Shown here: piece by piece, positions 351-52,668 of the stretch | How positions within the stretch are numbered: the first letter of the stretch is position 1 | How the letters are laid out: each line of letters opens with the position of its first letter | Source: a virus | Strand: one strand, 5' to 3' | Virus record (IMG/VR): IMGVR_UViG_3300030331_002523 | Span: 1 to 64,000 of that record | Length of the DNA stretch: 64,000 bases | Translations under genes and position numbers: made by a program | Notes under the pieces: generated by a model | What the model was told of the DNA's origin: nothing | The model's input: only the letters and a program-made list of their open reading frames with translations | The model's database searches: none

Positions 351-3300
351 ATGGCTAAAAAACGTCAACAAAATAGTAAGAGAACACCAAGCACTTCTAG
401 TGTAAATACATCTACTCCTATTAAGGGTATGATAAAAGATGTAGACAGTGCATACTTTAGTAAAGAAAACTGGTGGCATGCACGTAATCTTGCTAATAAT
501 TCTATAGATGGTGATACAGGAGTTGTAGGTAATGAACCTGCTAACTTGGCTTGTGGTGAGGTTCCATATACAATAATAGGAACAATTCATTTGTATGGTG
601 ATAAGTGGGTTTTATATGCAACAGATGATAATAATAGTGAGATAGGATTATTTGATGACAGCAAGTGTGAATACACAACTCTTGTTAATGCTCCTTGTTT
701 AAATTTTAATAGAAGAAATTTAATAATAGGTGCAGCAAAAGAAAACTTTGATTGTACATGGCAAGTATATTGGGATGATAATTTGAATCCATCTAGAACT
801 TTAAATATTGATAATGTTCCTTATATACAACAGATAGTTTCCGGTCCTGGTGATCCTTGTATTATATATGAAGATACAGAGCAACTTGATTGTGAAAAGT
901 TAAGATTACATCCTTTAATGGATATGGCATGTTTAAGATTAGAAAAGGCTGATGAAGGTGGTGCTTTATTAAATGGATCTTATCAAGCATTTATTGCATA
1001 TTGTGATAATGCACAACAAATAGGAGATTATTTTACAAACTCTAATATTACAAGTGTATGGTCACATGAAAATACTAATTCATCTATAGTACTACATTTA
1101 GATGGACTAGATACTGACTTTGAATTTTTTAAGTTAGTAATAAGAGAAAAAGTTGCAAACGCAACTAGAAATATTGAGTTTGGTGTTTATAGTACTGAAA
1201 CAAAACGTATTCCTATTGATTTTATAGATCCTGAATTACCTACAATAGATAATGTAAAGTTGTTACTAGATAATCCTGTATTTGAAAAATCAGCAGGTAT
1301 GTTTGTTGTAAATGACTATTTAATTAGATCTCAACCTACAGAATATTTTGATTTTAATTATCAACCATTAGCTAATCAAATAAAAACATTTTGGACATCT
1401 GTTGAATATCCAGAAGATTATTATAAAAATGGTGGTAATAATCCAACCTTTTTAAGGGATGAGCAATATGCTTTCTTTATAAGATTTATTTATAATACAG
1501 GTGAATTTTCTAAATCATATCATATACCAGGAAGAGCACCAAGACAGTTATCTAATGGTGGAACAGAAGATGGCCCAGCAGCAGCAAATACTATTGATGG
1601 TAGTGAAAAAAATTATAATGTATATAATACTTTTACATCTTTAGGATTAGGTGATCCATTTCTTGCAAACTTAATTGGTACAACAACGCCTGATGGTGGA
1701 TTAGTTACAAATGGTGGTGAGATGGGTTTTTGGCAATCAACAGAACTTTATCCACAAACACAACCGGAAAGGTATAATGCTTCAGCACATCCTTGGTCTA
1801 ATCCAGGTACAACAGAGTTTGATCTTTGTGGTTTACCAATAAGACATCATAAAATTCCTGATGAATCTGAAGCTGCTATTAGTCCATTAACTGGTAACAA
1901 CTCTACAGCATTATTTAATCCATCAAATTCTACTATAAATGTATTGGGTGTTGCTTTTGATAATATTGCACCTCCAGTAGATAATGATGGTAATATTATA
2001 GAAAATATAGTAGGTTATCAAATTATGGTTGGCTCAAGAGATGGTAAGAAATCTATTATAGCCAAGGGTATTATAAAGAATATGATGAGAGCCCGTAAGG
2101 ATAGAAATGATGAAGATTATAGACTCCTTGTACCTAACTATCCTTATAATGATTTAAGAATGGACCCTTATCTATTAGATAGAGGTCATGGTAATAGATC
2201 AGGAGAACCATGGTATGCACAATTAGCTGGATGGGATACTTCTGTAGAAGATAACTGGCAAGCAGGTAATACTAATATATCAGATGGTCCTCAAAGTATG
2301 GCTGTCTCATCTATAAATGTGGGTGTTAATAATCCAGGAATCTTTTTTTTACAAAACCCAGATTATGGTCCAGGTAAGTTTGATGAGAATACATATACTT
2401 TTCATTCACCAGATTTAAATTTTACTAAAACATATTTAAATCCTACAGAAGTAAAAGTATATAAAAATATTTATGGTAATGTTACGGGAAGATTTAAAAC
2501 AGTAGAAGGACATACACAACACAAGCTTTTAAAAAATAAAGTTGTATTACTTGCAGCAATATATGGTGTAGGTTATGCAATTATGAAAATGAGAGGAGAA
2601 CGTAACTATGCATTAAAAGGAACACGTTCACATTCAGTAGGGGAGTTTGGTACTTATGCTGTAGGATCAGGTACTCACGGTTCACCATTTCCTGGTGTTG
2701 GTACAGGTTATGGTGCTCTAAATGCTGGTGCACAAAATTTGACACAAGCCGGTGCCCTTACAACAGAATACTTTGCAGCAGGTGTAGTTGATGGAGTTTC
2801 TATTTTAGGTGGTGCTTCAGAGGCTAGTAAAGTACATCTTGGAACACAACAACAAGCACAATTAGGAGCAGCTTTACTATCAGGTGGACATCAAGGACCA
2901 GAGTTTAATATGGAGTTTAGAGATTCAGAATTTAATGCAGTTCCTGGTGTTGGTACTTTTATTACAGGTATACTAACATTTATAAACTTTGTTGCTATAG
3001 GTGGTGATAAATTAGTTCAACTAATATTAGATTTAGTATCTTTTCAAGATTATGCTTTAAAATATATTTCACATGGTTTTTATCAATTTGAAAATCCAGT
3101 TGATAAAAATGGTACTTTTAGAGCAGGTATAGATAGGGCTAGATATATAAAACAAGCATTGCAATCATTTGATGGTGATAATGTAGTACATAATTTATTA
3201 AGACCATCAACAGTTGTTTTAAGACATACTCCAGGAATTAGATTAAATCCTGTACCGGATAATTTTTTAGATAATACTAAATTTACATTAGGAGCAGGTC

Positions 3301-6300
3301 CTTGTGCAGGTTTAGGTAATAATGCTGCAAATTGGTGGCAACATGGTGAAGAGATTAGATCTAGATGTTCAACTAATTATGTATCAATAAAAAATCAAAT
3401 AGATAATCAATATGGACAGTTAGATAGTATTATTCAATTGCCTATATTTGGTTGTACTACTTTATATCCAAAGGATGAGGAATCTGGACAGTTGCTTCCT
3501 TTTGATCAAGATAGTAGATTTAGTACACAAGTTCTATTTGGTGGTGACTCATATATAGCAAGATATACAGAAAAAACAAATATGCCATTCTTTTATCAGT
3601 TTTTAAAAGATGATGAAGAACGTGGTTACCAATGGAATTATTCAAGATATGCAAATGTACCATTTCCAAGATATTGGTACAATTCTGAAAAATACCGTAT
3701 GGGTGAATTTGTTAGACCTATTACAGATTTAGATTTTAACTGGACTGGTGCATTACCTGATGGTATGTATAATTTAGATACAGCTGAAAATGGTGGTTAT
3801 TGTCCTGATGGAGGTCCTGAATCTGTAAGTTTTAATGCTAATTTTGATGAGTTAGGAGAAGGTAACCCGCTTGGTGATCCTGTAGGAAGTGGAGGTACAA
3901 GTGCAACTACAATATTTACTCCTGTACCGCTACCTGCAAGTGGTGCTATAGCTCCATCAGCAAATAATACTCCGGAATATGTTGTAGGTGCAGAAGCACA
4001 AAGATACTTGGTATATGATATACCTTCTGGAAATCTTGAAACTGGTCAATTTACATTAATTAAAAATGCAAACTTAGTTTCTATACAGTCTACCGGTTCA
4101 ACTATAACTTTAAGATATCCTAATGCAACTGCAGTTGATCAGGCTGTGAGAGATGAACTTATTGATTTGGGTATAACAAATGCAGAGGTAACTATAGATC
4201 TAACTTTAAATTTAAATATTCCAATACCATACACTACACCATTTGGATCTGGGTCTGGTAATTGTAATATAGATACTCATGTTAATACAATTTTTGGAGG
4301 TGGTGGTTGTACAGATACGTATGATGAGTTAACAACAAATACAGGGGGAACAGCACAGATGGAGGGTACTATAAGTGGTGTTAGAATTATTTTTGACTGG
4401 CAGAGTATGACTGTAGTTGGTATAACTAATGCTGCAGGATATACTATGGCTGGTGGAGGAGCAGGGACAGCTTATGCATCTAATCAATATAGTTCAGCAT
4501 CAGGAAATAATAATCCACAAACACTTTCTCCATATACAGGAACGCCTGTTCCTACTGATGACAATTATAGTCTTATAAATTTTTCAAGTAATTCTTATGA
4601 TGATGCATCTTCTGGTTGTGTATATCAATTAGCAGCTAATACTATAAGAGTTGTCAATGGATTTGCAAGATGTAGAAATAGTGGTTCTGATGCTGATGAA
4701 ATAACAATGACATTTAGTGGTGTTGATAATAATACTTCATTAGGTAGTGGTGCAACAACGGGACAAACAAATTATGATAATAGTATATATAATCCAACTA
4801 ATTATCAGGGTGCAGGAGGTAGAGCTACAGGTGGTATGTTTGTATGGAAATATGGATATATCTATACTCATAACTCTGGTATTAATGATTGGTATGTTGA
4901 AACAGATTTAAATCTAGCTTATAGGGATTATGAAGATGTAAAGAGAAAAAGGCATTATGATAATGATGATTATACAGATCTTGTAGAATTGTTTCACTCA
5001 CAAATAATTGGATTTGATAATTATTATAATTATGATAAGTCAGTGAGTGTAAGAAGATTTTGGAGTGTTTCTTTTTCTAAAATACAAGAAAGATGGTATG
5101 ATCCTACTGTAGCAGAACAATGTTTTACTCAATATCCTAAACGACTAATATATTCTGTACCTGCTACAGGATTTATGGATGCAGCTAGAATGACAAAGAA
5201 AAATGATAAAGCTATTGATTTCTGGAGAGTTTTCTTAGCAGAAAATTTTAGAGACTTTAAATCTCCTATTAATGCAATAGTTCCTTTTAATCAAACTGGT
5301 GCATTAATGTTATTTCCAACATTATCACCTAGAGTTTTTCAAGGTGTAGATAAATTACAATTAACAAGAAAAAAAGTTGTTATTGGAGATGGAGGTTTAT
5401 TTAGTCAAGTATTACAAAACGCAGCTAACTCTAATGTATCACATGAGTATGGATCATGTGAAAGTTTTAGGAGTGTATTAAATACACCACAAGGTGTTTA
5501 CTTTGTATCACAAGCTCAAGGTAAAATATTTTTATATCAAGCAGGTAGAGGTCTACAAGCAATATCAGATATAGGTATGAAATGGTGGTTTAATAAATTT
5601 TTACCATCAAGATTATTAGCAGATTTTCCAGGTGTAGAAGATTGTCCAGAATTTATAGATAATCCTGTAATTGCTGCAGGTATTAATACAGTTTATGATC
5701 CTAATGATGACATAGTGTATTTCTGTAAGAGAGATTATAAAGCACATGATCATGTTTTACCTTGTATAGATTTTATACCATGTGAAGGGTTTGTATATAA
5801 TGCTACAACATGTGATGGTGCAGAACCACAAGTACAGTGTCCAGATGGATATTCATTTGTACCAGGATCAGTAACATGTCCTCCTGGAGCTCAATTAGTA
5901 TACCAAGACCCAGATACTCCTGTATGTATAATTCCAGGGGCTGGAGGAAATCCAGTACCAGCAACTGTTGTAGAAGATCAATGTTGTCAAACAACAGTTG
6001 AGCCAGCTTTATTTACAACAGAACCTGTAGAGATTGACATTGTTTTTGCTATTGACTCATCAAATAGTATAGATCAAAATGGTAATACTGCTGGTATGAT
6101 TAATATTATAAGTGATCTTGTAGCTGCATTAGGAGCTGCACAAAATACTAATGGAGAGATAAGAATTGGATTTGTTCATTTTGGATCAGGTAGAGCAGAT
6201 ATAAATGGTAATTTAGCTGGTATTACTGCACCTGTGGGTAATGATACTATGTTTAATGAATTTGACCAACAAGCACTTTCTGATGACTTTTCAGCAAGTG

Positions 6301-9300
6301 GCCCTTTATTTACATACATAAATAATATATATAATCATGCAGTGACTACACCAGATAATCCTAGTGGTACAGATGTAATTGGAGGTATATGGGCTGGCTT
6401 AAATATTTTATTTGGATCAAGTGCAAGACCTAATGCAGAAAAAAGATTAATTACTTTAGCAGATGGTCCACAGTTTACAAAAAATAATGGAGCTGTTTAT
6501 ACAAGTCCAGTTGATGTTCATGATGCAGCAGGTGTAGTATTTCCAGCTACCCCTAATGTAAATATTGGACCTAATAATGAAGGTGTAAATAATATATATG
6601 ATACGCCATTATCAACAGCGGGTGCATGGTTTAATACAAATGTAAAAAATAATCCTAACTATACACATTTAAAATCTTACTTTATAGGATTAGATACAAA
6701 CCAACCTAATCCATCTCCTCCTCCTACAAGTATTATAACTACTCCTAATGCAAATCAACAAACATATTTTTCACAATTTGCAAATGATAATGGTACACCT
6801 ACAGCAAATGATACTTATACATTTTTTGGCACTGTGCAAGATCCTGACTCAGTTCAAGAAATAGTAGATGCAGTTGTGGACAGTGTTATACCTGATCCTA
6901 ATTACTATTGTCCTGATCAATCATGTGATCTAGTTGCTATGCCAATAGGAGCACCAGTTTGTAGATGTGTAAATTGTGTTGATCCAACATTAATTGATGT
7001 TACATTTCCTATAGATTTACAAGATGAACAATATTTTAAAGATGTATCATGGACTGTAAGTTATGATCCTAAATCTAAAGCATGGATATCTTTTCATGAT
7101 TGGCACCCAGAACTTACAATGAATAGTATAAATCATTTTTTAACTACTAAGTCTAAAGAAGGTGAGGTTCCTATTTGTCCTCCTGGTGCTACATGGAATG
7201 GTGTTGAGTGTTGTATATCAGCATTTCAACAAGCTCCAGCAGTGCCTATTATTAATGAAATATTAGCAGAAGTAAATACAGTACCTACTGGTCAAGTTGA
7301 ATCACAAAATTTAGATATTATATTTGCAGTAGATGTATCTGCTTCTACTGCTAGTGGTGGTGTACAAAGTCTACAAAGAAATTTTGTACAGAATATAATT
7401 AACAGTTATGATTTTTCTAGTGGTACTGTAAGAGCTGGAGTTGCTACTTGGAGTGCCACAGGTGGTAATAATGTACTGTTATCAGGTTTAACTACTGATC
7501 AAGCAGCTTTAATAACAGCTACTAACTCATATGCTGTTGGTGGTGGTACTAATTATAAAAATGCAATAGAGGCAGCAAATAGTGTTGTTAATAGTGTTGA
7601 TGCAGATACATTAGCGGATACAGTAGTTTGTATTATGATTACAGACTCTGACGTAGACAGAAATTCTACATTAAATACTTCACCTCTTATTAATTATAGC
7701 AATTTATTTACAGACATAAAAGTTGTAATGGTTCATCAAGGTGATGGTGCAGGTTTTGTAGGTTTTGGGTGTGATGATACTTCATGGCAAAGTAGAATTG
7801 CTGGTCTAGTAGATAGATTTGTTTTACCCGATGTACCAATTCCTATGACTCTAGTGGGTAATTCTTATAACGGTTTTAATGATGGTAGTACCCAGGTTAT
7901 ATGTAATGCTCCTGATGATAATGCTAATCTGTATGAGGTAACTTCTTGTACTGATTGCGATGTATGTAATACATGTTTTCAAAATGTAGCAGCACAATTA
8001 GTAAATGCACAATTAACTTGTGGATGTCCTCCTAATACAATACCTGATCAAAATCCAGCTAATCCACCATGTGAAAATATAAACAACCCTCCATTGTGTG
8101 TAGTAGATTGTACTTGTCCTCCTGGATATGTATTAGTTGGAACATGTAATAATTCTGCTGCCCCTCCTATTTGTAGATCTGTAGATTGTGAATGTCCTCC
8201 AAGTGAATCTCTTGGGTTACCTAGTGGGGTAACGCCAACTGCTACGGGTGATTGTTCACAAGAGTTAGTAGAAACTATAAATACAACAACTATAGAAAGT
8301 ACTGTAGCAGATGGAACAAATGTTGGACAACAATTATTTTTTACAAATCCTGGATTTAATGGACCAACTGGTTTAGAAATAACACCTAGTCCATGGAATA
8401 GAGGATATCAATGTAGAGATAGTGCTTGTGTTGGTGGTCTAATTGATCCAGATCAAGGTAACATAAAAACTATGACTGCAGATACTTTACCAGTTATAAC
8501 AAATTTACTTGGAGAGCTTGTTGATGGTACTCCTATTGTAGTTAGTTCAAGTGTTGGTGGGAATTTGCCTCCATATGAGGGAACTTCATATTTAGGATTA
8601 GTAGAGTTTAAAAAGGCAATTTGTTGGAGAGGTCTTGGAAATCTTAGTACTGTTTGTTGTGGACAACCATTTGGAGCAGAGCTATTTACTAATGGACCAC
8701 CTACATATTATCAAGAGGGAAGTTGGCAAGAACTTTTAGATGCAAATGGTCTACCAACTGAAATGGAAATGAATTTAGAATATGTAGGAACAGTGCAATT
8801 AAGTCAAATAAGTGATCATACGCTACAAGGTTTTCAGCTTGTAGAAAATAGTGAGGAGTATACCCCAGGCTATGATGAATTTTCAGATCCACCTAATATA
8901 TGTTTAGATCTTCCAGTTGAAAGCACTGCTTCACAAAATCTGGATTTTGCTCCAAGTCTTGAAATTTGGGGTGGTACACATTCCCCTTTATCACAGGGTG
9001 AGAACTACAAAGGACATCAATTTGGTTATCCATTAGGTACAGATACTGTAGGTTATAGTAAACTGTTATGGAGATCAGGTCCTGTTACTTCAGTAGATGA
9101 ATGGACGGAATATCAATATAGTTTGAATGTAAATGATTCTGATGGCTCTATAGAAGCAGCGCATGGAAAGTTTAAATATATATTTATTAAAATACAAATT
9201 GTACGTGTAAGTGATGGTCAACCAGCTGGAATTCCTGCTACAAGACAATATGCTGCAAAGTATTTAGCTGTAGATGGTTTAAGTAATCCTAGACCACCTA

Positions 9301-10013
9301 GTATAGAACCTGAAACAATTACTACAGTTTCTACAGAAAGTGTTATAACAAATGCTACAATATGCACATATCAAACAGAAATTTGTACTCCACCAAATTA
9401 TACAACAGGTGGTATATGGAGACATAACGTAAGAACTGATCTTTTTGCTAACTTCTATGATATTCAGTATCCTTGGGAGGTAGATATAATAGAAACAACA
9501 GGTCAGACTGTAAATACATTAAGAAGTGTAGAGTATCATTTAGAATCATATTTTTATAGTGAAGATCAATTAAACAGATTTCATGATCTAGATTATAATT
9601 TTGATGAAGCTATTATTTACAACTCAGAACAAATATCAGGATTATTAAATCTTGTTCTTACACCTAAGAATAACACACCTTTAACAATGTTATATCCTAT
9701 TTTTAATGCAAATAGTATTGATATTTTATTTAGTAAAGAAGAGCAGAAATATAGATTTAACCAGTTTTTTGATGTAACAAATGACAGAGGTGAGTTTTCA
9801 GGTGCTATAACACAAATGTTTGAGACAGAACAGAATGGTTATATTATAAATTTAAATCAAGCTAATTTAAATTATAATAAACCACAGCATGAGAGAAAGA
9901 AGTTTAGACATTACTTTAATCATCTTATACTTAGAAAATCTGCTGATGCAGCAATGACAAGAAAAATGTTATTGAGATTAGAAAACTTTAAATTAAACGT
10001 ATCCTTTAGATAA
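351..10013 (+). CDS. Tail stabilization/muzzle protein with inserted VWA, Cys-rich and jelly-roll domains (3220 aa)
   Basis: N-terminal GM.KD...NEPAN..C..IIG beta-propeller-like region, YWDD..NP.R, WTVSYDPK..AWISFHDW and C-terminal KKFRHY motifs of crAss stabilization proteins; MIDAS motifs DSSNS (6054-6068) and DVSAS (7332-7346). Confidence 0.75.
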   Translation: MAKKRQQNSKRTPSTSSVNTSTPIKGMIKDVDSAYFSKENWWHARNLANNSIDGDTGVVGNEPANLACGEVPYTIIGTIHLYGDKWVLYATDDNNSEIGLFDDSKCEYTTLVNAPCLNFNRRNLIIGAAKENFDCTWQVYWDDNLNPSRTLNIDNVPYIQQIVSGPGDPCIIYEDTEQLDCEKLRLHPLMDMACLRLEKADEGGALLNGSYQAFIAYCDNAQQIGDYFTNSNITSVWSHENTNSSIVLHLDGLDTDFEFFKLVIREKVANATRNIEFGVYSTETKRIPIDFIDPELPTIDNVKLLLDNPVFEKSAGMFVVNDYLIRSQPTEYFDFNYQPLANQIKTFWTSVEYPEDYYKNGGNNPTFLRDEQYAFFIRFIYNTGEFSKSYHIPGRAPRQLSNGGTEDGPAAANTIDGSEKNYNVYNTFTSLGLGDPFLANLIGTTTPDGGLVTNGGEMGFWQSTELYPQTQPERYNASAHPWSNPGTTEFDLCGLPIRHHKIPDESEAAISPLTGNNSTALFNPSNSTINVLGVAFDNIAPPVDNDGNIIENIVGYQIMVGSRDGKKSIIAKGIIKNMMRARKDRNDEDYRLLVPNYPYNDLRMDPYLLDRGHGNRSGEPWYAQLAGWDTSVEDNWQAGNTNISDGPQSMAVSSINVGVNNPGIFFLQNPDYGPGKFDENTYTFHSPDLNFTKTYLNPTEVKVYKNIYGNVTGRFKTVEGHTQHKLLKNKVVLLAAIYGVGYAIMKMRGERNYALKGTRSHSVGEFGTYAVGSGTHGSPFPGVGTGYGALNAGAQNLTQAGALTTEYFAAGVVDGVSILGGASEASKVHLGTQQQAQLGAALLSGGHQGPEFNMEFRDSEFNAVPGVGTFITGILTFINFVAIGGDKLVQLILDLVSFQDYALKYISHGFYQFENPVDKNGTFRAGIDRARYIKQALQSFDGDNVVHNLLRPSTVVLRHTPGIRLNPVPDNFLDNTKFTLGAGPCAGLGNNAANWWQHGEEIRSRCSTNYVSIKNQIDNQYGQLDSIIQLPIFGCTTLYPKDEESGQLLPFDQDSRFSTQVLFGGDSYIARYTEKTNMPFFYQFLKDDEERGYQWNYSRYANVPFPRYWYNSEKYRMGEFVRPITDLDFNWTGALPDGMYNLDTAENGGYCPDGGPESVSFNANFDELGEGNPLGDPVGSGGTSATTIFTPVPLPASGAIAPSANNTPEYVVGAEAQRYLVYDIPSGNLETGQFTLIKNANLVSIQSTGSTITLRYPNATAVDQAVRDELIDLGITNAEVTIDLTLNLNIPIPYTTPFGSGSGNCNIDTHVNTIFGGGGCTDTYDELTTNTGGTAQMEGTISGVRIIFDWQSMTVVGITNAAGYTMAGGGAGTAYASNQYSSASGNNNPQTLSPYTGTPVPTDDNYSLINFSSNSYDDASSGCVYQLAANTIRVVNGFARCRNSGSDADEITMTFSGVDNNTSLGSGATTGQTNYDNSIYNPTNYQGAGGRATGGMFVWKYGYIYTHNSGINDWYVETDLNLAYRDYEDVKRKRHYDNDDYTDLVELFHSQIIGFDNYYNYDKSVSVRRFWSVSFSKIQERWYDPTVAEQCFTQYPKRLIYSVPATGFMDAARMTKKNDKAIDFWRVFLAENFRDFKSPINAIVPFNQTGALMLFPTLSPRVFQGVDKLQLTRKKVVIGDGGLFSQVLQNAANSNVSHEYGSCESFRSVLNTPQGVYFVSQAQGKIFLYQAGRGLQAISDIGMKWWFNKFLPSRLLADFPGVEDCPEFIDNPVIAAGINTVYDPNDDIVYFCKRDYKAHDHVLPCIDFIPCEGFVYNATTCDGAEPQVQCPDGYSFVPGSVTCPPGAQLVYQDPDTPVCIIPGAGGNPVPATVVEDQCCQTTVEPALFTTEPVEIDIVFAIDSSNSIDQNGNTAGMINIISDLVAALGAAQNTNGEIRIGFVHFGSGRADINGNLAGITAPVGNDTMFNEFDQQALSDDFSASGPLFTYINNIYNHAVTTPDNPSGTDVIGGIWAGLNILFGSSARPNAEKRLITLADGPQFTKNNGAVYTSPVDVHDAAGVVFPATPNVNIGPNNEGVNNIYDTPLSTAGAWFNTNVKNNPNYTHLKSYFIGLDTNQPNPSPPPTSIITTPNANQQTYFSQFANDNGTPTANDTYTFFGTVQDPDSVQEIVDAVVDSVIPDPNYYCPDQSCDLVAMPIGAPVCRCVNCVDPTLIDVTFPIDLQDEQYFKDVSWTVSYDPKSKAWISFHDWHPELTMNSINHFLTTKSKEGEVPICPPGATWNGVECCISAFQQAPAVPIINEILAEVNTVPTGQVESQNLDIIFAVDVSASTASGGVQSLQRNFVQNIINSYDFSSGTVRAGVATWSATGGNNVLLSGLTTDQAALITATNSYAVGGGTNYKNAIEAANSVVNSVDADTLADTVVCIMITDSDVDRNSTLNTSPLINYSNLFTDIKVVMVHQGDGAGFVGFGCDDTSWQSRIAGLVDRFVLPDVPIPMTLVGNSYNGFNDGSTQVICNAPDDNANLYEVTSCTDCDVCNTCFQNVAAQLVNAQLTCGCPPNTIPDQNPANPPCENINNPPLCVVDCTCPPGYVLVGTCNNSAAPPICRSVDCECPPSESLGLPSGVTPTATGDCSQELVETINTTTIESTVADGTNVGQQLFFTNPGFNGPTGLEITPSPWNRGYQCRDSACVGGLIDPDQGNIKTMTADTLPVITNLLGELVDGTPIVVSSSVGGNLPPYEGTSYLGLVEFKKAICWRGLGNLSTVCCGQPFGAELFTNGPPTYYQEGSWQELLDANGLPTEMEMNLEYVGTVQLSQISDHTLQGFQLVENSEEYTPGYDEFSDPPNICLDLPVESTASQNLDFAPSLEIWGGTHSPLSQGENYKGHQFGYPLGTDTVGYSKLLWRSGPVTSVDEWTEYQYSLNVNDSDGSIEAAHGKFKYIFIKIQIVRVSDGQPAGIPATRQYAAKYLAVDGLSNPRPPSIEPETITTVSTESVITNATICTYQTEICTPPNYTTGGIWRHNVRTDLFANFYDIQYPWEVDIIETTGQTVNTLRSVEYHLESYFYSEDQLNRFHDLDYNFDEAIIYNSEQISGLLNLVLTPKNNTPLTMLYPIFNANSIDILFSKEEQKYRFNQFFDVTNDRGEFSGAITQMFETEQNGYIINLNQANLNYNKPQHERKKFRHYFNHLILRKSADAAMTRKMLLRLENFKLNVSFR

Positions 10014-13000
10014 TGAATAAACCATATAAAATAGGAAAATCTAATATAGAAGGTCAAGGTCTTATTGCAGCAATGGATCTTAAACCTGGTGATCTTATTG
10101 GTCTAAGTCATTCTAATGGTGAGATTGCATCAGAGATAGGTCAATATTATAATCACTCTGACACACCAAATGCTGTAAGTGCATTAGTTGGTGGTGATAG
10201 ATATGTAATTGTATCTGAGAATATATCTATGGGAGGTGAGATTACAGTTGATTATAGAAAACAACCTGAACTTGGGCAACCAGAGGATTTTATAAAAAAA
10301 ATGCAACCTGGTGGTCCAGTTATAATTAATTTTAGTAAAAAACTTTTAAAGAAGGTTGCAAAAGATAATAGATATTTACCACTAAAAAAATTAGATAATG
10401 TATTAACTAAAAACTTTAATACAGGTGAACAGCTTGTATTAGCAAATGTTTTAAAAAACAATCCTAATCTTATTCAAAATGATTTGGTTGATTTAAAACG
10501 GTTAGGAGATCTTGCAAACACGGATTTGGAAAAATCTTTACCTAGATTTACTAAAGTAGATGTAAATACTGATGATGTAGGTAAGGTTACTTCTAATTGG
10601 AAAAGTTTAGAAGCAGATGGTGCAGATTTTGGAGCACATAGATTACCTGAGCTTATGCCAAGTCAATTTAACTACGGATTTGGAAATGTCTTTTCCTATA
10701 GAATGCCAGGTACAAATAGATTTACTCCATTAAATTATTCTTTTGCTATGCCTCAACTTTTTACTAACCCTAGATTACCAGCTCATCATGATGGTCTACA
10801 TTTAATAGATGATAAAGCAATAGGATGGTTTAGAGGTTTAAGTGATGCACAAAATCCAAATAGATACTTAGCACAAGAGTTTCAAATGGATCTTGGAAAA
10901 GATAGGCAAAATACATATTTAGCAGAGAGATTAGATATGGGTTATAAAAGACCTAATACTCTATCACTAGGTTTACCAGGTAGACTAGAGAATCAAAGAA
11001 TAAATTATGCTCATATGATTAAAAGAGTTGATCAACAGCATCAAAGAAAACTTGATGAGTTTTATGATAAAAAAAGACAAAAAGAAATTTTAAAAACTGA
11101 GTATAATAATAAATTTGGTTTAGATGAATATAAAGGAGAATTAAATGACATTGAAAATAGGCTAGTAAATTTAAACTATGAGATATCTGAATTAGGTATG
11201 AAACTTGGTGATTCTAGATTTACAGAGTACATTACTCCAAGAATTAAATCTATTAAAAATCCTTTACAGGCAAGCAGAATAATGCAAAGTCCATATATGA
11301 CTTTACATAATGAAAGTCTTAATTTTTTAAGAAATAAAGGATTTAATGAGATAGTTATACCTGATGCAAAAACAATTACAAATATACAAAATTGGCCATC
11401 ACCTAGACAAGGAACATTAGATCTATATACTAGACTTAGAAATAATCCTATGTTAAAACAAGGAGATCCTTTTAAGTTTGATGAGTATGAAGGAACAATT
11501 TTTAATATTTTAGATAAACCATACAAAAGATTTAAACAGGATGGTGGTGAAGAAAATAATGAAGAATTATTTTCTATAAATAAATATAATGAAGTTATTA
11601 CACCTGAAGAATATACAAATGAACAGTTATTTGATTTCTTAAAAAATAACTATAATACAATTGATACATCTCAACAACAACAAGATCTTTTAGCAAAGTT
11701 TAGAACTCCTACTTTTTTAAATAGATATAAAAAGAATTACTTTAATATTACAGGTGAACAACTTGATGATGATCAAGCAATAAAGAATATATCAGAACAG
11801 TATGATTTTACTTCTAAAGGAGCACCTTTTCATGTATCATTTCCATTTGTTAGATATAATCCAGAGGGATACAAACAGTCATATTCACCATATATACAAC
11901 CATATCATGATAACAAAAGAGTTATTTTTAGTCCACAATTAAAAGGTTTATATGCAGATCCTCCTAACTTTACTTATAGAACTGTAGAAACACCAAACAT
12001 TCCAGAATTAGCAAATCAATATTCATTTGTACCAATGTTATTTAATAAAAGAAGTATAGATTCAATGGTAAGTGATGGTAGAGATGTAAGACCTTTTAGT
12101 GATGCAGATGAAACAATAGTTCATGAATATGCTCATTCATATAATACTGAAGATTCACCATTGTTTAAATCTATAGCTAATTTACTTAATAATCAAGATG
12201 ACTATGCTTATAAAGGGCCAGGTAAACGTTATAAAGGTTGGTTAACTAATTTATTTGGTGAAGAGTATTTTGATAAAGAGAAAAATCCATATGGTGAGTG
12301 GGCTATGCAACCAATGGAGATAAGTTCTATGAGAGCTGAGACTGAAACTAAATTAAAAGATGCAAATATTTGGGATCATACAAAGGGGGAATTTGGTATG
12401 GATAATTTAAATGCCATGTTAAAAAATAAATTTAATATGGAAGAAGGACCTGGTTATCATTTAAATCTTTTAGGTTATGGTGATTTACAACAAATAAGTA
12501 CAAATAAGCAGAAAATAAACAGAGAATATAAAAATGCATTACGTGATCTAGAGTCAAGTGGTGCTGATTCTGACAGAAAAATAGATTTTATAAAGTATAA
12601 TATATTAGAAGATTATGATGGAAATCCTAGAACTGATACTAGAGTAAATCCAGATCTTAAAAGATATTCATATGATAGTATAGATATAGATACATTTAAC
12701 AAGATATTATCAAATAGTCAAAGTGACATAAAAGAAAGAAATAGATATGCAACTTATGAGGACTTATTAAACGATTATAATTCTGGAAGAAAAAAGAAAA
12801 GAGAAAGAGCAGAATCTGTTCTTAATACTTTATATGATGGTATTAAAACTGAGATAGGTAATATATACAATCCAAAAATTGAAGAACAAGAAAATATATT
12901 AGAAAAAAAGAAAGAAGAAGTTTTACCCAAAATGGATAAATATTTTAATGAGATTGCAATGGAGGATCAGGAGAGTGATACTAGGCTAGCTAGATATGGT

Positions 13001-13927
13001 ACAGAATTACCTTTAGCACAAGACGGTACAGAAAAAAAACCTATGTTTGATTTTATGGGTTACTTTAAAGGAGAGCAAGGTTTAATACCAGATCTATATG
13101 GAAAGACTACTAAAGATACCTATATGGAAAATAAAGATGCTATTCAGAAAGGTGCAGATGTAGTTGCAGCAAGTGGTCTTCCTTTTGTATCTCAAGCTGC
13201 TAATGTAGTTAGCACCGGTATTGATTATGGTGATGCAGCTATGGCATATGCACAAGGTGATTATGATACAGCAAAAAAAGAATTTGCTCAAGGAACTACA
13301 GGTTTTGCATTAGGTATTTTACCAGGTGGTAAGGCAATTAAAGCCGCAACAAAAGGAGTAGGAGAATCAATAGTAAAAGGTGGTATTAACACAGGAGTAA
13401 AGTATGGTGCAAAATCAGGTGTTAAATCTGGAGTACAAGAAGCTGTTGATACAATAGTTGATACTAATACTCAGAAGAAGAATATAGGTGATGTAGTAGA
13501 AAATACTGCTTCAAATAGTATGGCAATGATGGGAGGTGAAGTATATAGATATGAAAGATCTCCTTTTAAAGATGGTAAGTTTGTTATATCAAATCCGGAT
13601 GATCTTATTATACAAATAACAAAGACAGAAATGTTTACACCTGAATTTAAAATGGGCGGTGTTGTTACAGCTGATGGTTTTACATTAGAAAAGAAATTTG
13701 ATAATAAAAGAAAATTACCTTTTATACAATATTCAAAAGAAACAGATGTAGAAGGTAGAGTGTATTATGATAATACAACAAATGAAATAGTAGATGTTAC
13801 AACTTTAGAATTAAAAAAGAAAAGAAAACATAATAGAATTAAAACTATTATTGATAAATATGAATCTGGAAAAGAGTTATCTAGACTAGAAACTGATGCT
13901 TTAAACTCTTTAGGGTTATTAGATTAA
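10013..13927 (+). CDS. Multidomain virion cargo polyprotein: N-terminal SET domain, E-x-Q-x-D domain, HExxH zincin, pre-toxin-like hydrophobic segment
   Basis: SET motifs GxG (EGQGL), NHS (10151-10159), EITVDY (10238-10255); HEYAH at 12122-12136; TAATG coupling to the upstream gene. Confidence 0.7.
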   Translation: MNKPYKIGKSNIEGQGLIAAMDLKPGDLIGLSHSNGEIASEIGQYYNHSDTPNAVSALVGGDRYVIVSENISMGGEITVDYRKQPELGQPEDFIKKMQPGGPVIINFSKKLLKKVAKDNRYLPLKKLDNVLTKNFNTGEQLVLANVLKNNPNLIQNDLVDLKRLGDLANTDLEKSLPRFTKVDVNTDDVGKVTSNWKSLEADGADFGAHRLPELMPSQFNYGFGNVFSYRMPGTNRFTPLNYSFAMPQLFTNPRLPAHHDGLHLIDDKAIGWFRGLSDAQNPNRYLAQEFQMDLGKDRQNTYLAERLDMGYKRPNTLSLGLPGRLENQRINYAHMIKRVDQQHQRKLDEFYDKKRQKEILKTEYNNKFGLDEYKGELNDIENRLVNLNYEISELGMKLGDSRFTEYITPRIKSIKNPLQASRIMQSPYMTLHNESLNFLRNKGFNEIVIPDAKTITNIQNWPSPRQGTLDLYTRLRNNPMLKQGDPFKFDEYEGTIFNILDKPYKRFKQDGGEENNEELFSINKYNEVITPEEYTNEQLFDFLKNNYNTIDTSQQQQDLLAKFRTPTFLNRYKKNYFNITGEQLDDDQAIKNISEQYDFTSKGAPFHVSFPFVRYNPEGYKQSYSPYIQPYHDNKRVIFSPQLKGLYADPPNFTYRTVETPNIPELANQYSFVPMLFNKRSIDSMVSDGRDVRPFSDADETIVHEYAHSYNTEDSPLFKSIANLLNNQDDYAYKGPGKRYKGWLTNLFGEEYFDKEKNPYGEWAMQPMEISSMRAETETKLKDANIWDHTKGEFGMDNLNAMLKNKFNMEEGPGYHLNLLGYGDLQQISTNKQKINREYKNALRDLESSGADSDRKIDFIKYNILEDYDGNPRTDTRVNPDLKRYSYDSIDIDTFNKILSNSQSDIKERNRYATYEDLLNDYNSGRKKKRERAESVLNTLYDGIKTEIGNIYNPKIEEQENILEKKKEEVLPKMDKYFNEIAMEDQESDTRLARYGTELPLAQDGTEKKPMFDFMGYFKGEQGLIPDLYGKTTKDTYMENKDAIQKGADVVAASGLPFVSQAANVVSTGIDYGDAAMAYAQGDYDTAKKEFAQGTTGFALGILPGGKAIKAATKGVGESIVKGGINTGVKYGAKSGVKSGVQEAVDTIVDTNTQKKNIGDVVENTASNSMAMMGGEVYRYERSPFKDGKFVISNPDDLIIQITKTEMFTPEFKMGGVVTADGFTLEKKFDNKRKLPFIQYSKETDVEGRVYYDNTTNEIVDVTTLELKKKRKHNRIKTIIDKYESGKELSRLETDALNSLGLLD

Positions 13928-13947
13928 AATTAGTTTATATTGCGTTT

Positions 13948-13967
13948 TTTTAGTATATTATTATTGT
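13948..13967 (+). promoter_or_regulatory. Candidate late-promoter motif, copy 1
   Basis: TTTTAGTATATTATTATTGT, intergenic before 13991. Confidence 0.55.
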
Positions 13968-23353: not shown

Positions 23354-26300
23354 ATGGCTCTAGAAGAATTAAATACGTATAGTGGTGCTGTAGATAATAC
23401 ACCAAACAATCAGAATAATCCTGAAGATAATAATAGGATAGCTCCAGATAATCTTCAAGTGCAAACTGTTTTAGATCCTGTAACTATTAATCAGGGTCCT
23501 ACACAGGTGGGTAAAACTCATCAAAATAATTTAGGAAGGATTGTACCTGGACCAGCTCCTGGAATGATTGATCTAGAGGTAAGAGATGTTTTAATACCAT
23601 CTCCATTACCTATTGGTCCTCTTGATCCTACAGTTGTTGAGAATGCTGATGTGTTACAAAATGTGTTAAAATATAATCCGGTAGAAATGAATTTTCCTGG
23701 TGTACTTGATCCTAACTCACCTATCTATAAACAACAACCAACACCCAAATTGCAATTAACAGATCTGCAAAAAGAAATACAAATGTTTGGACAGGATACA
23801 AACATGCCTGATCCTGTTACAGCAGAACAACCATTAAGATTTGGTATAAAAGCTACAAATTATGATAGATATGATGCACCAGGTTTTGAACAATTATTTA
23901 ATGATATAGGATTTCATCCTTATGTAGATAATGAATCTTATTATAATGCTAATTCTACATGGTGGGATGAGAATGCAAGAATGCGTAGCCAATGGGGAAA
24001 GATTTTTAGTACTGGTTTTATGAGTACTTATAGAGCAATTAGTGATGCATTTAGAGGTGATTATTTAGCACCAGACACAAGTGGATCAGATGTTTTTGAA
24101 GATGCTATGCGTATTGGTAATTCATCTAAGGGTGGTACAGGTGCTTTCTTTAATAACTTGGCATTAAATTCAGGATACACTTTTGGTATTCTTGCAAATA
24201 TAGCTGTAGAAGAACTTGCACTAGCTGGTTTAGAAGCCGTAACATTTGGAGGTGCTACTCCTGTTGTAGCTAGTAGAACAGCATATAATCTAGTAAGAGG
24301 TGGTAAAGCATTAAGAGGTGCTCCAAAAGTAAAACAAACAGCTGCAGCTAGTAAGTCTTTGTTACAAAGAATGAAAAACTTTGATTTTACTAGAGATGTT
24401 TGGAATGCTGGTGGTAGATTTTTAGGTAATGCAGTTACACCTAACACATACAAAGCTATTAAAAATATTTATACTACAAATAATACAGCACGTCAGCTAT
24501 CTGGATTAGCAAAAATCTCAAGTACTGTTGGTGGTTTATATAGAGATGTAAGAGCTGTAAATTTAGCTATGTCTGAATCAAAATTAGAGGCTGGTTTTGT
24601 AGAGAACTCAACATTTAATAATTTATATTCTCAACATTTAGCAGACTTTGGAGCTCCACCAACTGGTAAACCTCTTGAAGATATGAGAATGGCAGGAGCA
24701 GAAGCTGCATTTACAGCAACATTATGGAACTTCCCACTAATCTATTTTTCAAATGCTATTGTTTTTGACACAGCATTAAGAGGATTTAAAGGTCTTGCAA
24801 AACCTATGGCTGATCTAACTACAGAAGCTGGTAAAAGGGTGGTTAGAAAAACAAAAGGTCAGTTAGCAAAAGAAACTGCTAAAAAGGGAACTAAAGGTAG
24901 TGTAGAAGCATATGTAGATTTAGGCAAAACAGTATCAGGTTTTGGTATAAGAAGAACATTTAAAAGAGGTATAAGAGGTAATCTTAATTTACTTAAATGG
25001 GGTGGTCTAAGATACTTTGGAGCAAATTATGTTGAAGGTATGCAAGAAGTTGGACAAGAGGCTATTGCTGTTGGTGCAGAAGATTATTATACAAATCTTT
25101 ACAATGATCCATCTATGGGTGGGATAGATGCTCAGATGGCCTCTATCTATCATGGTATAGGATCTCAGATGACTTCTCATGGTTTTGAAGTATTTATGTC
25201 TGGGTTCTTAATGGGTGGTTTAGTACAAGGTCCACAAAAGTTAGTTTTTAATACTTTACCTGAACTATTTCAATCTAAGTTTAATAAAGAAAAGTTTGCT
25301 GCATATGATAAATCAAGAGAAGACTATATTAAAAATGTAGTTAAAGTTTCTAATGAAGTTTATAATGATCCTGATTTTTATTTTAATGAAACTAAATTAA
25401 ATGCAATACAGCAAAAATTATCTAATGAAGATTTCTTTGCTGCATCATATGCAGGTAGTGCATTAAATGGATATGACGCTAAAGATTCAGGAATATTTCA
25501 TCATTTATATACTTTAGCAGAATCTGGTAAATTACATGACTTTAGACAAGATATAAAAGCTTTTCAAAAGCTTGATGACAAAGCATTATTAGAAGCATTC
25601 CCACAAGCTACTGAAGAAGATGTTAAGTCTGGTAAACTGAGAGAAAGGTTAACACAAATGGAGACCCGTTTAGATAAGATTGATAAGGCTTATAAAAAAC
25701 TTAATGATGAAATTATAAATCCATTTGATCCAAGTTTATATAAAGAAGGAACACAAGAGCACCTAAATGAAAAAATAAATCAGGCTGCATTTCATCATGC
25801 TAAGATGATTTCAATTTTTGCTAATGATACATTTGAGAGGGCAGTAGAAAGAGCTAATTCAATGTATAATGATATATCTGAAATTAGTGGTGAGTTTGCT
25901 ACTAATGATGTTGATAATCTATTAGATATTAAAAAGCTTATATCTGAGATTGATCTTTTAAAGATAGAGATTGAGTTATCTAATAAACCTGAAATAGTTC
26001 TTAATGAAGAAGGAGAAGCTGTAGAACAAAAGAAAGAATTATCAGATGATGAAAAGATTTTAATTGAAAAGAAAAAAGAAAGATTAGTTTTATTACAAAA
26101 TATATTTAAAGTACTATCTAATCCTGCTTTTGTTAATAGAGGTCCTTTTGTAAGTGTTGTGCCTAAACAAGATGAGGAGGAAGAGCAAACAGAACAACAA
26201 AAAGCAACAGAACAACAGATCTATGAAAAGTCTTTAGAAACAATGAGAGCAAGAATTTTGTCTGATGAAGCATTAAAGACAGATCCTGATCTTATTAGAA

Positions 26301-29300
26301 AACTAGCTGCATCTGTATCAGATCCTTTTGGTGAGTTTAAAACAGAGAATATTGAAGAGTTAACTGCAGTTATTAGACCATATTTAGAGTTTTTACTTAT
26401 AAATACAGAAAATGCTGATGTATCATCATTGCCTACAGATATAACAGAAATAGTACAAAAAATAATTGACTATAAAACAGTAAAGGGTAGATCAGAAGAT
26501 GTAGACTTTGCTATGAGAAATATATTAAGTCCTGAGAATTTAGCATCATTAGCTGAGAAAATTGCTCCAAGATTTAAGAAAGTATATTTTGAAAATAAAG
26601 GTAAGGTTGAAGAAAGAATAAGAAACTATGTAGGTATAGTAGAAAGAAATGAGTTTTTATCTACACTAGCAAAAGCAGGTATTTTTCCAAGGGATGAGCA
26701 GGTTGCTAAGTTTCTTAAGGATGGTACAATGCCAACAATTTATGGTAACTATAATGGTGTTATAGATGAGACAAGTGGACAACCATGGACAATCTTACAA
26801 GATGCTATAAAAAAGTATGAAGGTATAAGAAGTAAAAAAGATAAACCTAAATCACAGGAAACAACAGAGAAGGATGAGACTAATGTAGATGATAACTTTA
26901 ACTATGAAGAAAACTTTGAAGATATAGATCCTGAGCCAGAGGTTGATCCAGATAATATAGAGGCAGAACAAGAAAAGATAGAAGATAAAAAGATTGCTAA
27001 GGACTATCTAAAAGAACAGTGGAGAAAGTATGTAAAACTTAGATCTAGTAAAGATCAAAACTATTTAGATTATACAGCTTGGTTAAAGAGTGATAATTCA
27101 CGTACTGTAAGAAAGAGAGCTAAAGCTATAAATGATATAGTACAAAATGTATATACACCTGCAATTGTATCTGGTGAAACAACAAAACCTTTTTACGAGT
27201 TTTTATCTGAGAAAAGAAATGATAGACGTGTTAGAGATATTTTAAGATTGTATAATTTAACTATAGGACAAATATCTTCTGCAGCTTTACCAAAGAGTGT
27301 TGATACAAGTAATGAAAATACAAAGAAAAGAAAAACAACTCCTCATAGTTCTGGATTAAATATACAGAAGAGAAGTATGAGAACTAAGGAAGGAGAAGAA
27401 GTTACTGAATATATTATTGTAGATAACAACAAAGATCCTATAAATGATAATATCTATAGTACAGCAAGAGAAGCTACTACAGCTAGGAATGCTATTGCTA
27501 AAGCAGAGACACCAGAGGAAACTTATACTATAGGTCAAGAACAAATATCTAAAGGTGAAATAGTTCAAGATAAAAATGGTAACTGGTGGACAGTACAGTC
27601 TGATAAGAAACAAGTTGAGGGCGGTAAAATAACATTACATAAATACAATGTAAAAAATCCAAGAAAGAAAGATAAGAAAAATATAAAAATTTCTACATTT
27701 CAGAAAGGTTATACAGTTGTTACTAATGATGAAATAAACTTTATTAATACGGTAAGTAAGTTACCAGTAAGAGAACCTTTAACAGTATTTCCTGCAAGAG
27801 ATAATAAAATAGAAAACTATGAAGAAAGAGTAGCTAAGTCTGTAGAACAACAACAAGAGTTTTTTAGAAAATTAACTCCATCACAAATAGAACTTATAGA
27901 TGTTGAGATTATTAAAAATCAACAGCAAGGAGATATTGATATTAGAAATAGACGTAGTTTTAGATTTGGTGATAAAGAAACTAATGATAAAATTAAACTT
28001 GGATCTCAAAGGTATAGTATTAAGTTATCACTATATAATTCAAAAACTAAAACAAATGATGTACTTGGATATTTTCAAGGACCTGAGACAGCATTGTTTC
28101 TGACACAAAGTGGAAAAAATGGTAAACAATTATCTCCTTTTCAAATTGATGAAAGTAATGTTAGAGAATACTTTATTATATACCCAAATCAAAATATACA
28201 AGATGTTGTAAAACAGATACATGAAAATTATACTGCAGGATTTTATATTTATGATCAGATAGATAAGATGTTTGAGAATAGAATAGAGAGTAAGCTAGAA
28301 GTGAAACTATCTGATTTACCTTTTTTAAGTGCAGCATTAAGTCCTGGACAGCAATCATTAAATCCAAATAATGATAGAATACCTTTTAACACTTTAGAAA
28401 CTCAGTTTGTTTTAGGTGATACTACTGATACTACTGATGGTAACAAACCATATTATATTTTAGATTTCCAAAGAGATTATGAAAGACGTGGAGATGATAA
28501 GATTACAGCACTACCTATAACAAATATAAAATCAAACACTGAGTTACGTGCACGTATTAGAGAAAAAGTAAAAGACTTTCAGAAATCTGATATTAAAAAT
28601 AAACTGGGTAGATATTTTGCATATGTAGAATTAGAAAATGGCGCTGGATCTTTTGTTGATCTTAGTCCTGCTGAGATGTCAGATGCTGATTTTAATAAGA
28701 TGTTAGCTGATATGAAAAAAGTATCACAGAATACTTATGATAATAACACAGAAGAGAATAAAGCAGGTGCAAGAGTAGCAAAGAAACTTAACTATAAGAA
28801 CAATGATGAATTGTCTAAGAAGTTAAATGAAGAATTATTTATTGCAACAGACAAAAAGGGTGAATATATTACTTTATCATACTCTCCTGCAAGTGGACTT
28901 ACTATAGATTATGTAAACCTTAATGCTAAAAAGAATTCTAAAAAAAGAAAAGGTAAAGGTTTTATGAGTAATGACAATTTGCAAAAGGTAAGAGATCAAG
29001 TTGATTTTGCAAAGGAGTTAAATAGTATTATAAAAGATGCATCTGGTATAGATATAAAACCTGAATCATTTAAGTATTCTGTAAATAAAGAAGGAGAAGG
29101 TATTGATATTATTGGTTTAATGTTAACAAGACATAAGCCAGAAATCAAATCTAATTTTAGTTTACAGTTAAAAGTAGATCCTGTTGAGATATCTTTAGAA
29201 AAATATCAGGCTAATTTACTAACATCACTTAACTTAGAAGAAGTAACTGAAGACAATGAGACAGAAGAGGCACCTTTAAAATTAACATCTGAAGAGAAAA

Positions 29301-38878: not shown

Positions 38879-38884
38879 AAAACC

Positions 38885-52125: not shown

Positions 52126-52287
52126 ATGGCAAAGAAAAAAAAGAAAAAAGCTAAAAGAGATGCTTGTTACAATAAAGTAAGAGCAAGATATAGTGTATGG
52201 CCTTCAGCTTATGCATCCGGTGCATTGGTAAGATGTAGAAAAGTTGGTGCTGCTAACTGGGGTAATAAATCTAAAAAGAAAAAATAA
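52126..52287 (+). CDS. 53-aa basic protein (PSAYASG family; not in ORF track)
   Basis: Manually translated MAKKKKKKAKRDACYNKVRARYSVWPSAYASGALVRCRKVGAANWGNKSKKKK. Confidence 0.75.
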   Translation: MAKKKKKKAKRDACYNKVRARYSVWPSAYASGALVRCRKVGAANWGNKSKKKK

Positions 52288-52442
52288 TGGCAGTAAAAAA
52301 AACAAAAGCTAAAAAATTTAAAGTGCATATGATGTATAGCAAATCAGGTAAAGCTGTTAAAGCTGGTACATATAAAAAGCATTTAGAGTTAAAGAAGAAA
52401 GGTTACAATCATGATAAGCGTAGACTTAAAAAGAAAAAATAA
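52287..52442 (+). CDS. 51-aa Lys-rich protein (not in ORF track)
   Basis: Manually translated MAVKKTKAKKFKVHMMYSKSGKAVKAGTYKKHLELKKKGYNHDKRRLKKKK; TAATG overlaps on both sides. Confidence 0.7.
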   Translation: MAVKKTKAKKFKVHMMYSKSGKAVKAGTYKKHLELKKKGYNHDKRRLKKKK

Positions 52443-52663: not shown

Positions 52664-52668
52664 AAATA

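Follow-up and report, generated by a model that had tools for sequence, protein, structure and literature searches.

What does a SET domain do at the leading end of a large protein encoded immediately behind a phage structural gene? We consider this question for a 64,000-nucleotide stretch of DNA (referred to here as the window), which takes up positions 1 to 64,000 of a 115,405-bp virus record in IMG/VR (IMGVR_UViG_3300030331_002523; GC content ~32%). Its plus strand, to which all coordinates refer unless marked otherwise, carries an open reading frame (ORF) for a modular protein of 1304 aa (10013..13927), the ATG of which overlaps the stop codon of an upstream 3220-aa ORF as TAATG at 10013. 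An earlier reading of the same DNA (the original prediction) had assigned residues 1-101 (10013-10315) to a SET-domain lysine methyltransferase at the front of a virion cargo protein. We found here that residues 1-93 belong to the SET family, on which profile, fold and motifs all agree, and that this SET head is an optional, swapped accessory cassette of the gene. By analogy with a crassvirus cargo protein, the large protein that carries it, which a marine crAss-like phage encodes after its muzzle gene, probably travels in the virion and is injected into the host. Our preferred reading, to which we give a probability of roughly one half, is that residues 1-93 are a catalytically competent, stripped-down SET methyltransferase which forms an exchangeable cassette at the head of a polyvalent cargo protein, and which acts in the manner proposed below.

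A minimal SET domain at the head of the protein

The domain (10013..10291) comprises SET-N and SET-C, with a linker of <=8 residues where SET-I would be, and a family-specific acidic tail. The front of the protein passes the Pfam cut-off for SET (PF00856; 22.4 bits) both by itself (30.7 bits, E 4.5e-7 on residues 1-106) and as part of the whole protein (24.0 bits). Because this alignment takes in only model positions 59-104, which correspond to the C-terminal half of the SET model, the N-terminal half of the domain rests on the fold match. An AlphaFold2 model of the module, built from 36 family members, has a mean predicted local distance difference test score (pLDDT) of 85.4, with values >90 for residues 1-80. 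Its top Foldseek match in the PDB is the viral enzyme vSET (3kma; E 3e-6, template modelling scores 0.62/0.65), and among the Foldseek matches listed all are SET or PR domains. Superposition with VIA-align on EZH2, MLL1/3 and vSET gave Z scores of 12.1-12.5 and root-mean-square deviations (rmsd) of 1.4-2.9 A over 76-87 residues; for a wider set of matches, in which SMYD3 also reaches a Z of ~12, the values were Z 11-12.5 and 1.4-3 A over 73-91 residues. The original call of a SET domain is thus borne out, well beyond chance, by a Pfam score above the cut-off, by a predicted structure that is a SET fold and by intact motifs, all of which are present as they had been quoted.

The first of these motifs, S10-x-I12-x-G14-x-G16-L, includes the GxG of SET-N (G14-Q-G16; 10052..10060), which forms part of the S-adenosylmethionine (SAM)-binding loop in known SET enzymes and of which G16 is invariant and G14 nearly so. 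YYNHS (residues 45-49) and PN (52-53) together provide the NHSxxPN element N47-H48-S49-D-T-P52-N53 (10151..10171), which serves SAM binding and the pseudoknot in known SET enzymes and can be aligned to KMT2D and vSET. GEITVDY (G75-E-I-T-V-D-Y81; 10235..10255) corresponds to the ELxF/YDY motif and ends in the invariant, putative catalytic Tyr81. In phmmer comparisons with PDB sequences (KMT2D SET, 1.2e-3; vSET of Paramecium bursaria chlorella virus 1 (PBCV-1), 0.028), NHS..PN falls in register with RYINHSCAPN of KMT2D and FNHSKDPN of vSET, and Tyr81 with the Y of LTYDY and of ITISY, respectively. These motifs are followed by the tail Q84-P-E-L-G-Q-P-E-D-F93 (10262..10291), a version of the family hallmark QPELEQPEDF in which Q84, P85, L87, Q89 and P90 show little or no variation. 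The module is closed by the GG motif M97-Q-P-G-G101 (MQPGG, residues 97-101; 10301..10315), whose G100 is nearly invariant in a second family alignment; this motif marks a module boundary and is possibly a processing site.

Predicted absence of the SET-I insert

In the model and the alignments, ~8 residues (S34-I41) join the IGLSH strand to the helix preceding NHS, and VIA-align matches model residues 1-82 to a span of 121 residues in MLL1 and of 103 in vSET. According to the predicted structure, therefore, the SET-I insert is essentially absent from the phage module; SET-I is typical of the family, although its length is variable and the Pfam definition does not require it. In known SET enzymes, SET-I lines one side of the groove that receives the substrate and of the lysine channel. 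It may be that the conserved acidic tail (residues 84-95, isoelectric point (pI) 4.1), a partner protein or oligomerisation stands in for it in the phage module. A predicted SET homodimer with SAM scored 0.06, a value which bears neither for nor against a dimer of the vSET type. Since all of the catalytic motifs are kept without SET-I, the module offers a test of how much of a SET domain is the minimum needed for catalysis.

The closest structural relative is vSET (A612L of PBCV-1; PDB 1N3J, 3KMA), which is likewise a minimal SET domain from a virus, has neither pre-SET nor post-SET zinc clusters and superposes on the phage module with a Z of 12.1 and an rmsd of 1.7 A over 79 residues at 28% identity. 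The enzyme vSET is a stand-alone 119-aa protein of a eukaryotic virus and acts on histone H3K27 as a dimer. The phage module, in contrast, is ~25 residues shorter, has a SET-I of <=8 residues and its own QPELEQPEDF tail, heads a 1304-aa protein and belongs to a phage whose host is without histones; the similarity in sequence is marginal (the phmmer E of 0.028 given above). The likeness to minimal vSET that had been proposed for this domain nevertheless holds, the phage module being even smaller.

The unusual surroundings of the active site (no SET-I and a novel tail) might also be taken to mean that the enzyme is active on a non-lysine or non-protein acceptor, for example on a histidine, which the SET fold of SETD3 is able to methylate, or on a protein N-terminus. 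Nothing speaks positively for such an acceptor, and the SET enzymes characterised so far are, with few exceptions, lysine methyltransferases, so that we regard this as very improbable and retain lysine methylation as the preferred reading.

A phage-restricted family with conserved catalytic motifs

A phmmer search of the module against 1.84 billion cluster representatives returned 734 relatives at E<=1e-3, 245 of them at E<=1e-10. Motifs and positions were counted in 162 family proteins, four of which carry two SET modules, giving 166 modules. These proteins have a median length of ~860 aa (the largest has 3301 aa) and the module is N-terminal in 131 instances (79%), C-terminal in 19 and internal in 16. 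Positions S10, I12, G14, G16, G30, H33, G43, N47, H48, P52, E76, T78 and Y81 are invariant or nearly so, with N47, H48 and P52 invariant in the first family alignment; G30 and G43 likewise count among the invariant positions. GxG is found in all 166 modules, E-x-x-x-Y in 165 and NH[S/D/T] in 156. The tail Q84-P-E-L-x-Q-P90-E-D-F equals the catalytic motifs in its degree of conservation, and C-terminal copies of the module stop a few residues past ..EDF, which marks F93 as the end of the domain. Beyond it, either a GG within 12 residues or the end of the protein follows 116 of 159 modules. The Pfam SET cut-off is also passed by 22 of 23 relatives encoded next to a muzzle gene and by 13 of 13 relatives in a second set. 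Comparison with the closest relative gave a ratio of non-synonymous to synonymous substitution rates (dN/dS) of ~0.28, a rough figure from one pair and 93 codons. A pattern scan of 185,579 prokaryote species, one genome per species, turned up just one relative, located on a 4.4-kb contig of a metagenome-assembled genome. The family is in effect phage-restricted, resides almost exclusively in large proteins of phages and is nearly absent from cellular genomes.

Invariance of the SAM-binding and catalytic residues across the family makes it likely that the module is an active methyltransferase. The alternative is a catalytically dead SET fold that serves as a structural or binding element, such as a plug or an adaptor at the muzzle or tail barrel. 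The missing SET-I, which leaves the canonical substrate groove incomplete, and a conserved tail without known catalytic role would suit such an element, as would the N-terminal location of the module, given that the N-terminus of gp45 in the crassvirus PhicrAss001 contacts the tail barrel and muzzle (PMC10172136). It is hard to explain without catalysis, however, why GxG, NH and Y81 should be invariant in hundreds of diverged copies spread over three unrelated architectures, and a structural plug would not be dispensable or swapped for an unrelated head in the way described below. A dead fold is for these reasons quite unlikely, and we continue with the module as a probable enzyme.

A scan of IMG/VR with the SET module found 95 loci, of which 80 were kept. 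In the first of the three architectures, seen at ~38 of the IMG/VR loci, the stop codon of a muzzle homologue is where a SET-headed ORF (~600-1750 aa) starts, and homologues of the 1092-aa and 1173-aa ORFs of the window come next; these muzzle-adjacent SET proteins can be aligned only over their first ~95-135 residues. The second architecture, DHH-SET, comprises proteins of ~690-750 aa with an N-terminal DHH phosphoesterase (PF01368) and SET at about residues 477-533, whose genes adjoin a DNA methyltransferase gene in a non-structural region. The third is made up of stand-alone SET proteins of ~100-120 aa. The module is also contained in PHROGs 28741 and 34170, both of which are labelled 'unknown function'. 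DHH-SET genes were located at L026:7815-9980, L045:8399-10636, L063:7475-9550, L082:8426-10639 and ~35 other loci, and their products carry a conserved C-terminal module of ~120 aa (..DGYR.YSPFKD..).

The SET head is an exchangeable cassette

BLASTP comparison of the SET-headed protein with SET-less counterparts revealed three shared regions, at residues 512-1007 (43% identity), 1012-1186 (47-54%) and 1174-1303 (42-43%), so that the alignments break at residues 512, 1007/1012 and 1174 of a protein whose homologues include P0002-P0008. The breaks coincide with FKQDGG (11531-11548, residues 507-512), AQDG (13019-13030, residues 1003-1006) and AMMGG (13523-13540, residues 1171-1176), and the extra modules that are inserted in P0003, P0005 and P0006 each close with xQxGG. 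The last of the shared regions is a constant C-terminal module (residues 1174-1304; 13532..13924), which is common to SET-headed and SET-less versions of the gene, has 42-43% identity to the muzzle-adjacent proteins of L085, L086, L087 and L094 and is conserved in P0002-P0008. From breaks at GG motifs, and from the xQxGG that each inserted module brings with it, we conclude that the gene is a series of GG-delimited cassettes with a constant C-terminus and a variable front. Motifs of the Q-x-GG type occur in the 1304-, 845- and 1092-aa ORFs of the window; none was found in its 1173-, 5174- and 1872-aa ORFs.

The variability of the front is apparent among the 12 closest loci, which we retrieved with the C-terminal part of the muzzle protein. 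The SET head is present in two, while the other ten open the same gene with an unrelated head of ~70 aa (MKYSKDGYKR..IPSGNITM..) that likewise closes in a GG motif. Moreover, of five near-complete close relatives, four are devoid of SET modules throughout their genomes, and the fifth (G005) has a different, stand-alone SET protein of 104 aa (L096:1474-1788, minus strand). This G005 protein reads FLNHSDKPN..ELTVKY and is without the QPELEQPEDF tail, and its gene is flanked by the end of the last cargo gene on one side and by a ribonucleotide reductase gene on the other. Examples of the ~70-aa head, MKYSKDGYKRNSKD..IPSGNITM..VDFPVFG.., are at L085:6672-8213, L086:6629-10780, L088:7044- and L094:6699-11420. 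A similar stretch of the DGY[KR]..SPFKD type occurs near the C-terminus of the window protein (residues ~1175-1215) and after SET in the DHH-SET proteins.

A cargo gene position in a crAss-like phage

The 3220-aa ORF upstream of the SET-headed gene (351..10013) encodes a muzzle-like virion protein which falls into the virion structural family phrog_37948 (2.5e-42) and matches structural proteins of the Cellulophaga phages phi17:2 and phi4:1 and of the gut crAss-like phage csAssE-Sib. Downstream, ORFs of 845, 1092, 1173, 5174 and 1872 aa follow, of which the last two (23354..44503) are assigned as virion RNA polymerase (RNAP) genes by a motif and by BLASTP matches to PhicrAss001: the 5174-aa ORF to gp50 (7e-15) and gp47 (6e-7), and the 1872-aa ORF to gp49 (3e-24). 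Terminase, portal and major capsid protein are encoded at 92-100 kb of the record, on the same strand as the SET gene, and the structural block continues across the ends of the record into the window. The order of terminase, portal, capsid, muzzle, SET-headed gene and virion RNAP homologues identifies the genome as crAss-like. Its host is probably a member of the Bacteroidota, as indicated by the Cellulophaga phage relatives together with a type IX secretion system (T9SS) sorting domain in an ORF neighbouring the SET-headed gene. The phage is uncultured and known only from marine metagenomes; its DNA is present in those of several studies.

The closest positional relative of the SET-headed protein is the crassvirus cargo protein C1. 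The gene order in PhicrAss001 is gp44 (muzzle) followed by gp45 (cargo C1), and the SET-headed gene occupies the gp45 position, immediately behind the muzzle gene and ahead of those for the virion RNAP. Mass spectrometry detected gp45, gp46, gp47, gp49 and gp50 in PhicrAss001 virions, and gp45 was found to span the particle, its N-terminal part lying in the tail barrel and a C-terminal domain on the portal (PMC10172136). A constant C-terminus joined to a variable N-terminal head fits this arrangement. BLASTP of the SET-headed protein at E<=10 gave no match to PhicrAss001 gp45 or gp46, however, and the window protein and gp45 differ further in that gp45 has no SET domain and the window protein no predicted transmembrane helix.

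The closest system is the polyvalent protein class. Phage-type polyvalent proteins are large, are encoded in packaging or structural neighbourhoods, chain together unrelated effector domains and are predicted to be delivered with the DNA (Iyer et al. 2017, PMC5512222). The SET-headed gene resembles them in its structural neighbourhood, in the shuffling of its modules and in the domains of its homologues. In the 23 muzzle-adjacent ORFs mentioned above, Pfam detects, besides SET, Phage_lysozyme, SLT, Amidase_2, Amidase_6, LysM, PG_binding_1, the ADP-ribosyltransferase (ART) domain ART-PolyVal, two GNAT families and a DUF6782 metallopeptidase, to which the homologues P0009, P0011 and P0013 add YkuD and LysM. 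The lysozyme, SLT, amidase, ART-PolyVal and GNAT domains mark these homologues as polyvalent cargo proteins. The window protein itself has SET as its sole confirmed enzymatic domain and, beyond that, an HExxH motif only. The phrase 'SET domain' was not found in the main text of PMC5512222, a result which does not cover the supplementary architecture lists.

The second part of the original prediction, that the SET domain heads virion cargo, consequently survives in a qualified form: it agrees with the position after the muzzle gene, with the virion RNAP homologues downstream and with the domains of homologues, but similarity to gp45 or gp46 does not accompany it. This lack of similarity raises the alternative that SET is a real enzyme but that the protein is not packaged, or its SET part not delivered, and that it works late in the cytoplasm of the infected cell. 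Stand-alone and DHH-fused forms of SET outside structural modules would be in keeping with such a role, and the 'unknown function' label of both PHROGs leaves room for it. Strict synteny with the muzzle gene at ~38 loci is difficult to reconcile with a protein that stays behind, as are the virion protein genes on both flanks and sister modules (lysozyme, SLT, amidase and ART-PolyVal) that are typical of ejected proteins. We consider an undelivered enzyme unlikely, and favour delivery as cargo.

Proposed mode of action

The course of events that we envisage for the cargo protein is as follows. It would be made late, together with the muzzle protein with whose gene its own overlaps at TAATG. By analogy with gp45, the constant C-terminal module would bring it into the particle, where the variable N-terminal modules would face the tail or reach into it. 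Ejection would take place ahead of the DNA, and possible cutting at the xQxGG joints would free an enzyme of ~100 aa. Because SAM is a cytoplasmic cofactor, the cytoplasm of the host would have to be the place where SET acts, unless it does so earlier, in the producing cell. Its most likely action would be the early lysine methylation of a host protein, as an accessory effector of take-over or counter-defence that is analogous to the ADP-ribosyltransferase and acetyltransferase modules which relatives carry in the same gene. A host target of this kind is favoured because the distribution of the SET head is sporadic and because ART and GNAT effectors are found alongside.

There are precedents for the underlying logic. 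T4 Alt is a virion ADP-ribosyltransferase, and Legionella RomA/LegAS4 and Chlamydia NUE are secreted SET effectors. What the SET head would share with them is that a small-molecule-dependent modifier of proteins is delivered at the start of infection, and in the case of Alt the parallel extends to the ART domains that relatives carry in the same gene. The bacterial SET effectors RomA/LegAS4 and NUE are full-size and act on eukaryotic histones.

Several points weigh against this reading. Packaging, ejection, cleavage, activity and host target are all things that we infer, and the SET structure is a predicted model. The assignment as cargo draws on where the gene lies and on which domains its homologues contain, with no detectable similarity to gp45 or gp46. 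Occurrence of the SET module in the non-structural DHH-SET context means that virion delivery is not intrinsic to the family. With its SET-I cut to <=8 residues, the modelled domain may need a partner or work differently. Cleavage at the GG motifs, for which no protease is assigned, is proposed from the sequence as a possibility. Finally, a second enzymatic domain in the window protein is not confirmed, the HExxH module having neither a Pfam match (E<=10) nor a PDB match with phmmer.

Do the phage's own proteins serve as substrates?

The original prediction had also offered lysine-rich small proteins encoded at 52126-56107 as possible substrates of the SET domain, which would make the two a histone-like pair of writer and substrate, and had proposed to test whether the two co-occur. 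The block of very basic ORFs of ~45-100 aa at 52126-53631 and 55832-56107 is real. An ORF scan based on composition found it also at G001 4190-8556, at G002 60669-64696 and in part in G004, all of which are 96-100% complete genomes with no SET module anywhere. A 61-aa basic protein (53446-53631) has the same sequence in three genomes, in contrast to its diverged neighbours; G001 and G002 also hold close copies of three or four others. A homology search with one basic protein (52893-53192) in five relatives gave no match, but the query is of low complexity and the result is for that reason uninformative. As the block is kept in genomes without SET, the basic proteins belong to the core gene set of the clade, to which SET is an accessory addition. 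The idea of an obligate writer/substrate pair is therefore not supported, since the block is conserved in near-complete SET-less relatives, and the test for co-occurrence of SET with the basic-protein cluster across relatives came out negative. The basic proteins could still be one substrate among several, although with the co-occurrence argument gone nothing singles them out.

A broader form of the same idea is that SET methylates the phage's own proteins (the basic proteins, other cargo or itself) in the producing cell or in the virion, and that this would tune DNA condensation, protease resistance or ejection. The genome does encode a block of very basic 50-100-aa proteins, which the acidic tail of the module (residues 84-95, pI 4.1) could attract as substrates, and the operon layout suggests that the SET gene is co-expressed with late structural genes. 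Prokaryotic SET enzymes that act on chromatin proteins are known, for example the Methanosarcina mazei SET protein on MC1-alpha. Set against this, the basic block, including the identical 61-aa protein, is kept in the SET-less G001, G002 and G004, an unrelated head replaces SET in ten of the 12 closest relatives, and the same module is fused to DHH phosphoesterases in other phages. A SET domain that is dispensable while its substrate is conserved is unlike an essential writer of the basic proteins. Methylation of the phage's own proteins thus seems improbable to us, and early modification of a host protein remains the preferred action.

Novelty and implications

A literature search on SET domains in phages, Crassvirales, jumbo phages and virions found no SET module in a phage cargo or polyvalent protein, nor any characterised protein methyltransferase that is delivered by a phage. 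A 'SET domain protein' ORF is mentioned in Stenotrophomonas phage Ps15 and is unstudied, and the structural account of PhicrAss001 mentions only a C2-set immunoglobulin domain (PMC10172136). As a weapon in the conflict between phages and bacteria, lysine methylation of proteins has received hardly any study. The modifiers known to be delivered by virions are ADP-ribosyltransferases, kinases and DNA-modifying enzymes. The crAss-like phages include the most abundant viruses of gut and marine Bacteroidota, and a phage-restricted SET module with hundreds of lineages at the leading end of their first cargo protein points to an unstudied activity in early infection. It is a decidedly tentative suggestion that the module, at ~90-100 aa and with no SET-I, would be the smallest working SET enzyme, stored in the tail or capsid of crAss-like phages, freed at a GG motif and directed at a host protein, and that it would thereby be the first protein methyltransferase of a phage to be injected from the virion. 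The system is in any case a tractable one, comprising a protein of ~100 residues, a single Tyr and relatives that naturally have or lack SET.

Other features of the locus

The remainder of the 1304-aa protein includes H704-E-Y-A-H708 (12122..12136), an HExxH motif that may belong to a zincin peptidase. An ESM Atlas search with the surrounding module gave nothing reliable (best score 0.85; the lead to LPD23 scored 0.82). A fold prediction for residues 515-1002, from a six-row alignment, had a pLDDT of 31 and was discarded as unusable, so that the zincin label stays at the level of the motif. No convincing transmembrane helix was found in the cargo proteins, the best 19-residue hydropathy in the window protein being 1.19, and none of 50,697 phage records was matched by the full-length protein in a tblastn search.

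Metatranscriptome contigs (X19 and X20), which come from two libraries made from a marine sample in which DNA of the phage is present as well, cover 13364-13950 only. They are 99-100% identical to the 3' ~590 nt of the gene, which lie outside the SET region. Since the runs exist as contigs and RNA libraries may hold DNA, this is too little for a claim of transcription, and transcription of SET is neither shown nor excluded.

For the N-terminal third of the muzzle protein (351-3350), the best match among isolates is the cyanobacterial Leptolyngbya phage Lbo-JY46 (28.6% identity over ~500 aa, E 4e-30), which ranks before the Cellulophaga phages in this part of the protein. In the 5174-aa ORF, the crAss-type motif GADFDID is found at residue 3906 (35069-35083) and HEAFH at residue 2207 (29972-29986), and this ORF unites in one frame the regions that are split between gp47 and gp50 in PhicrAss001.

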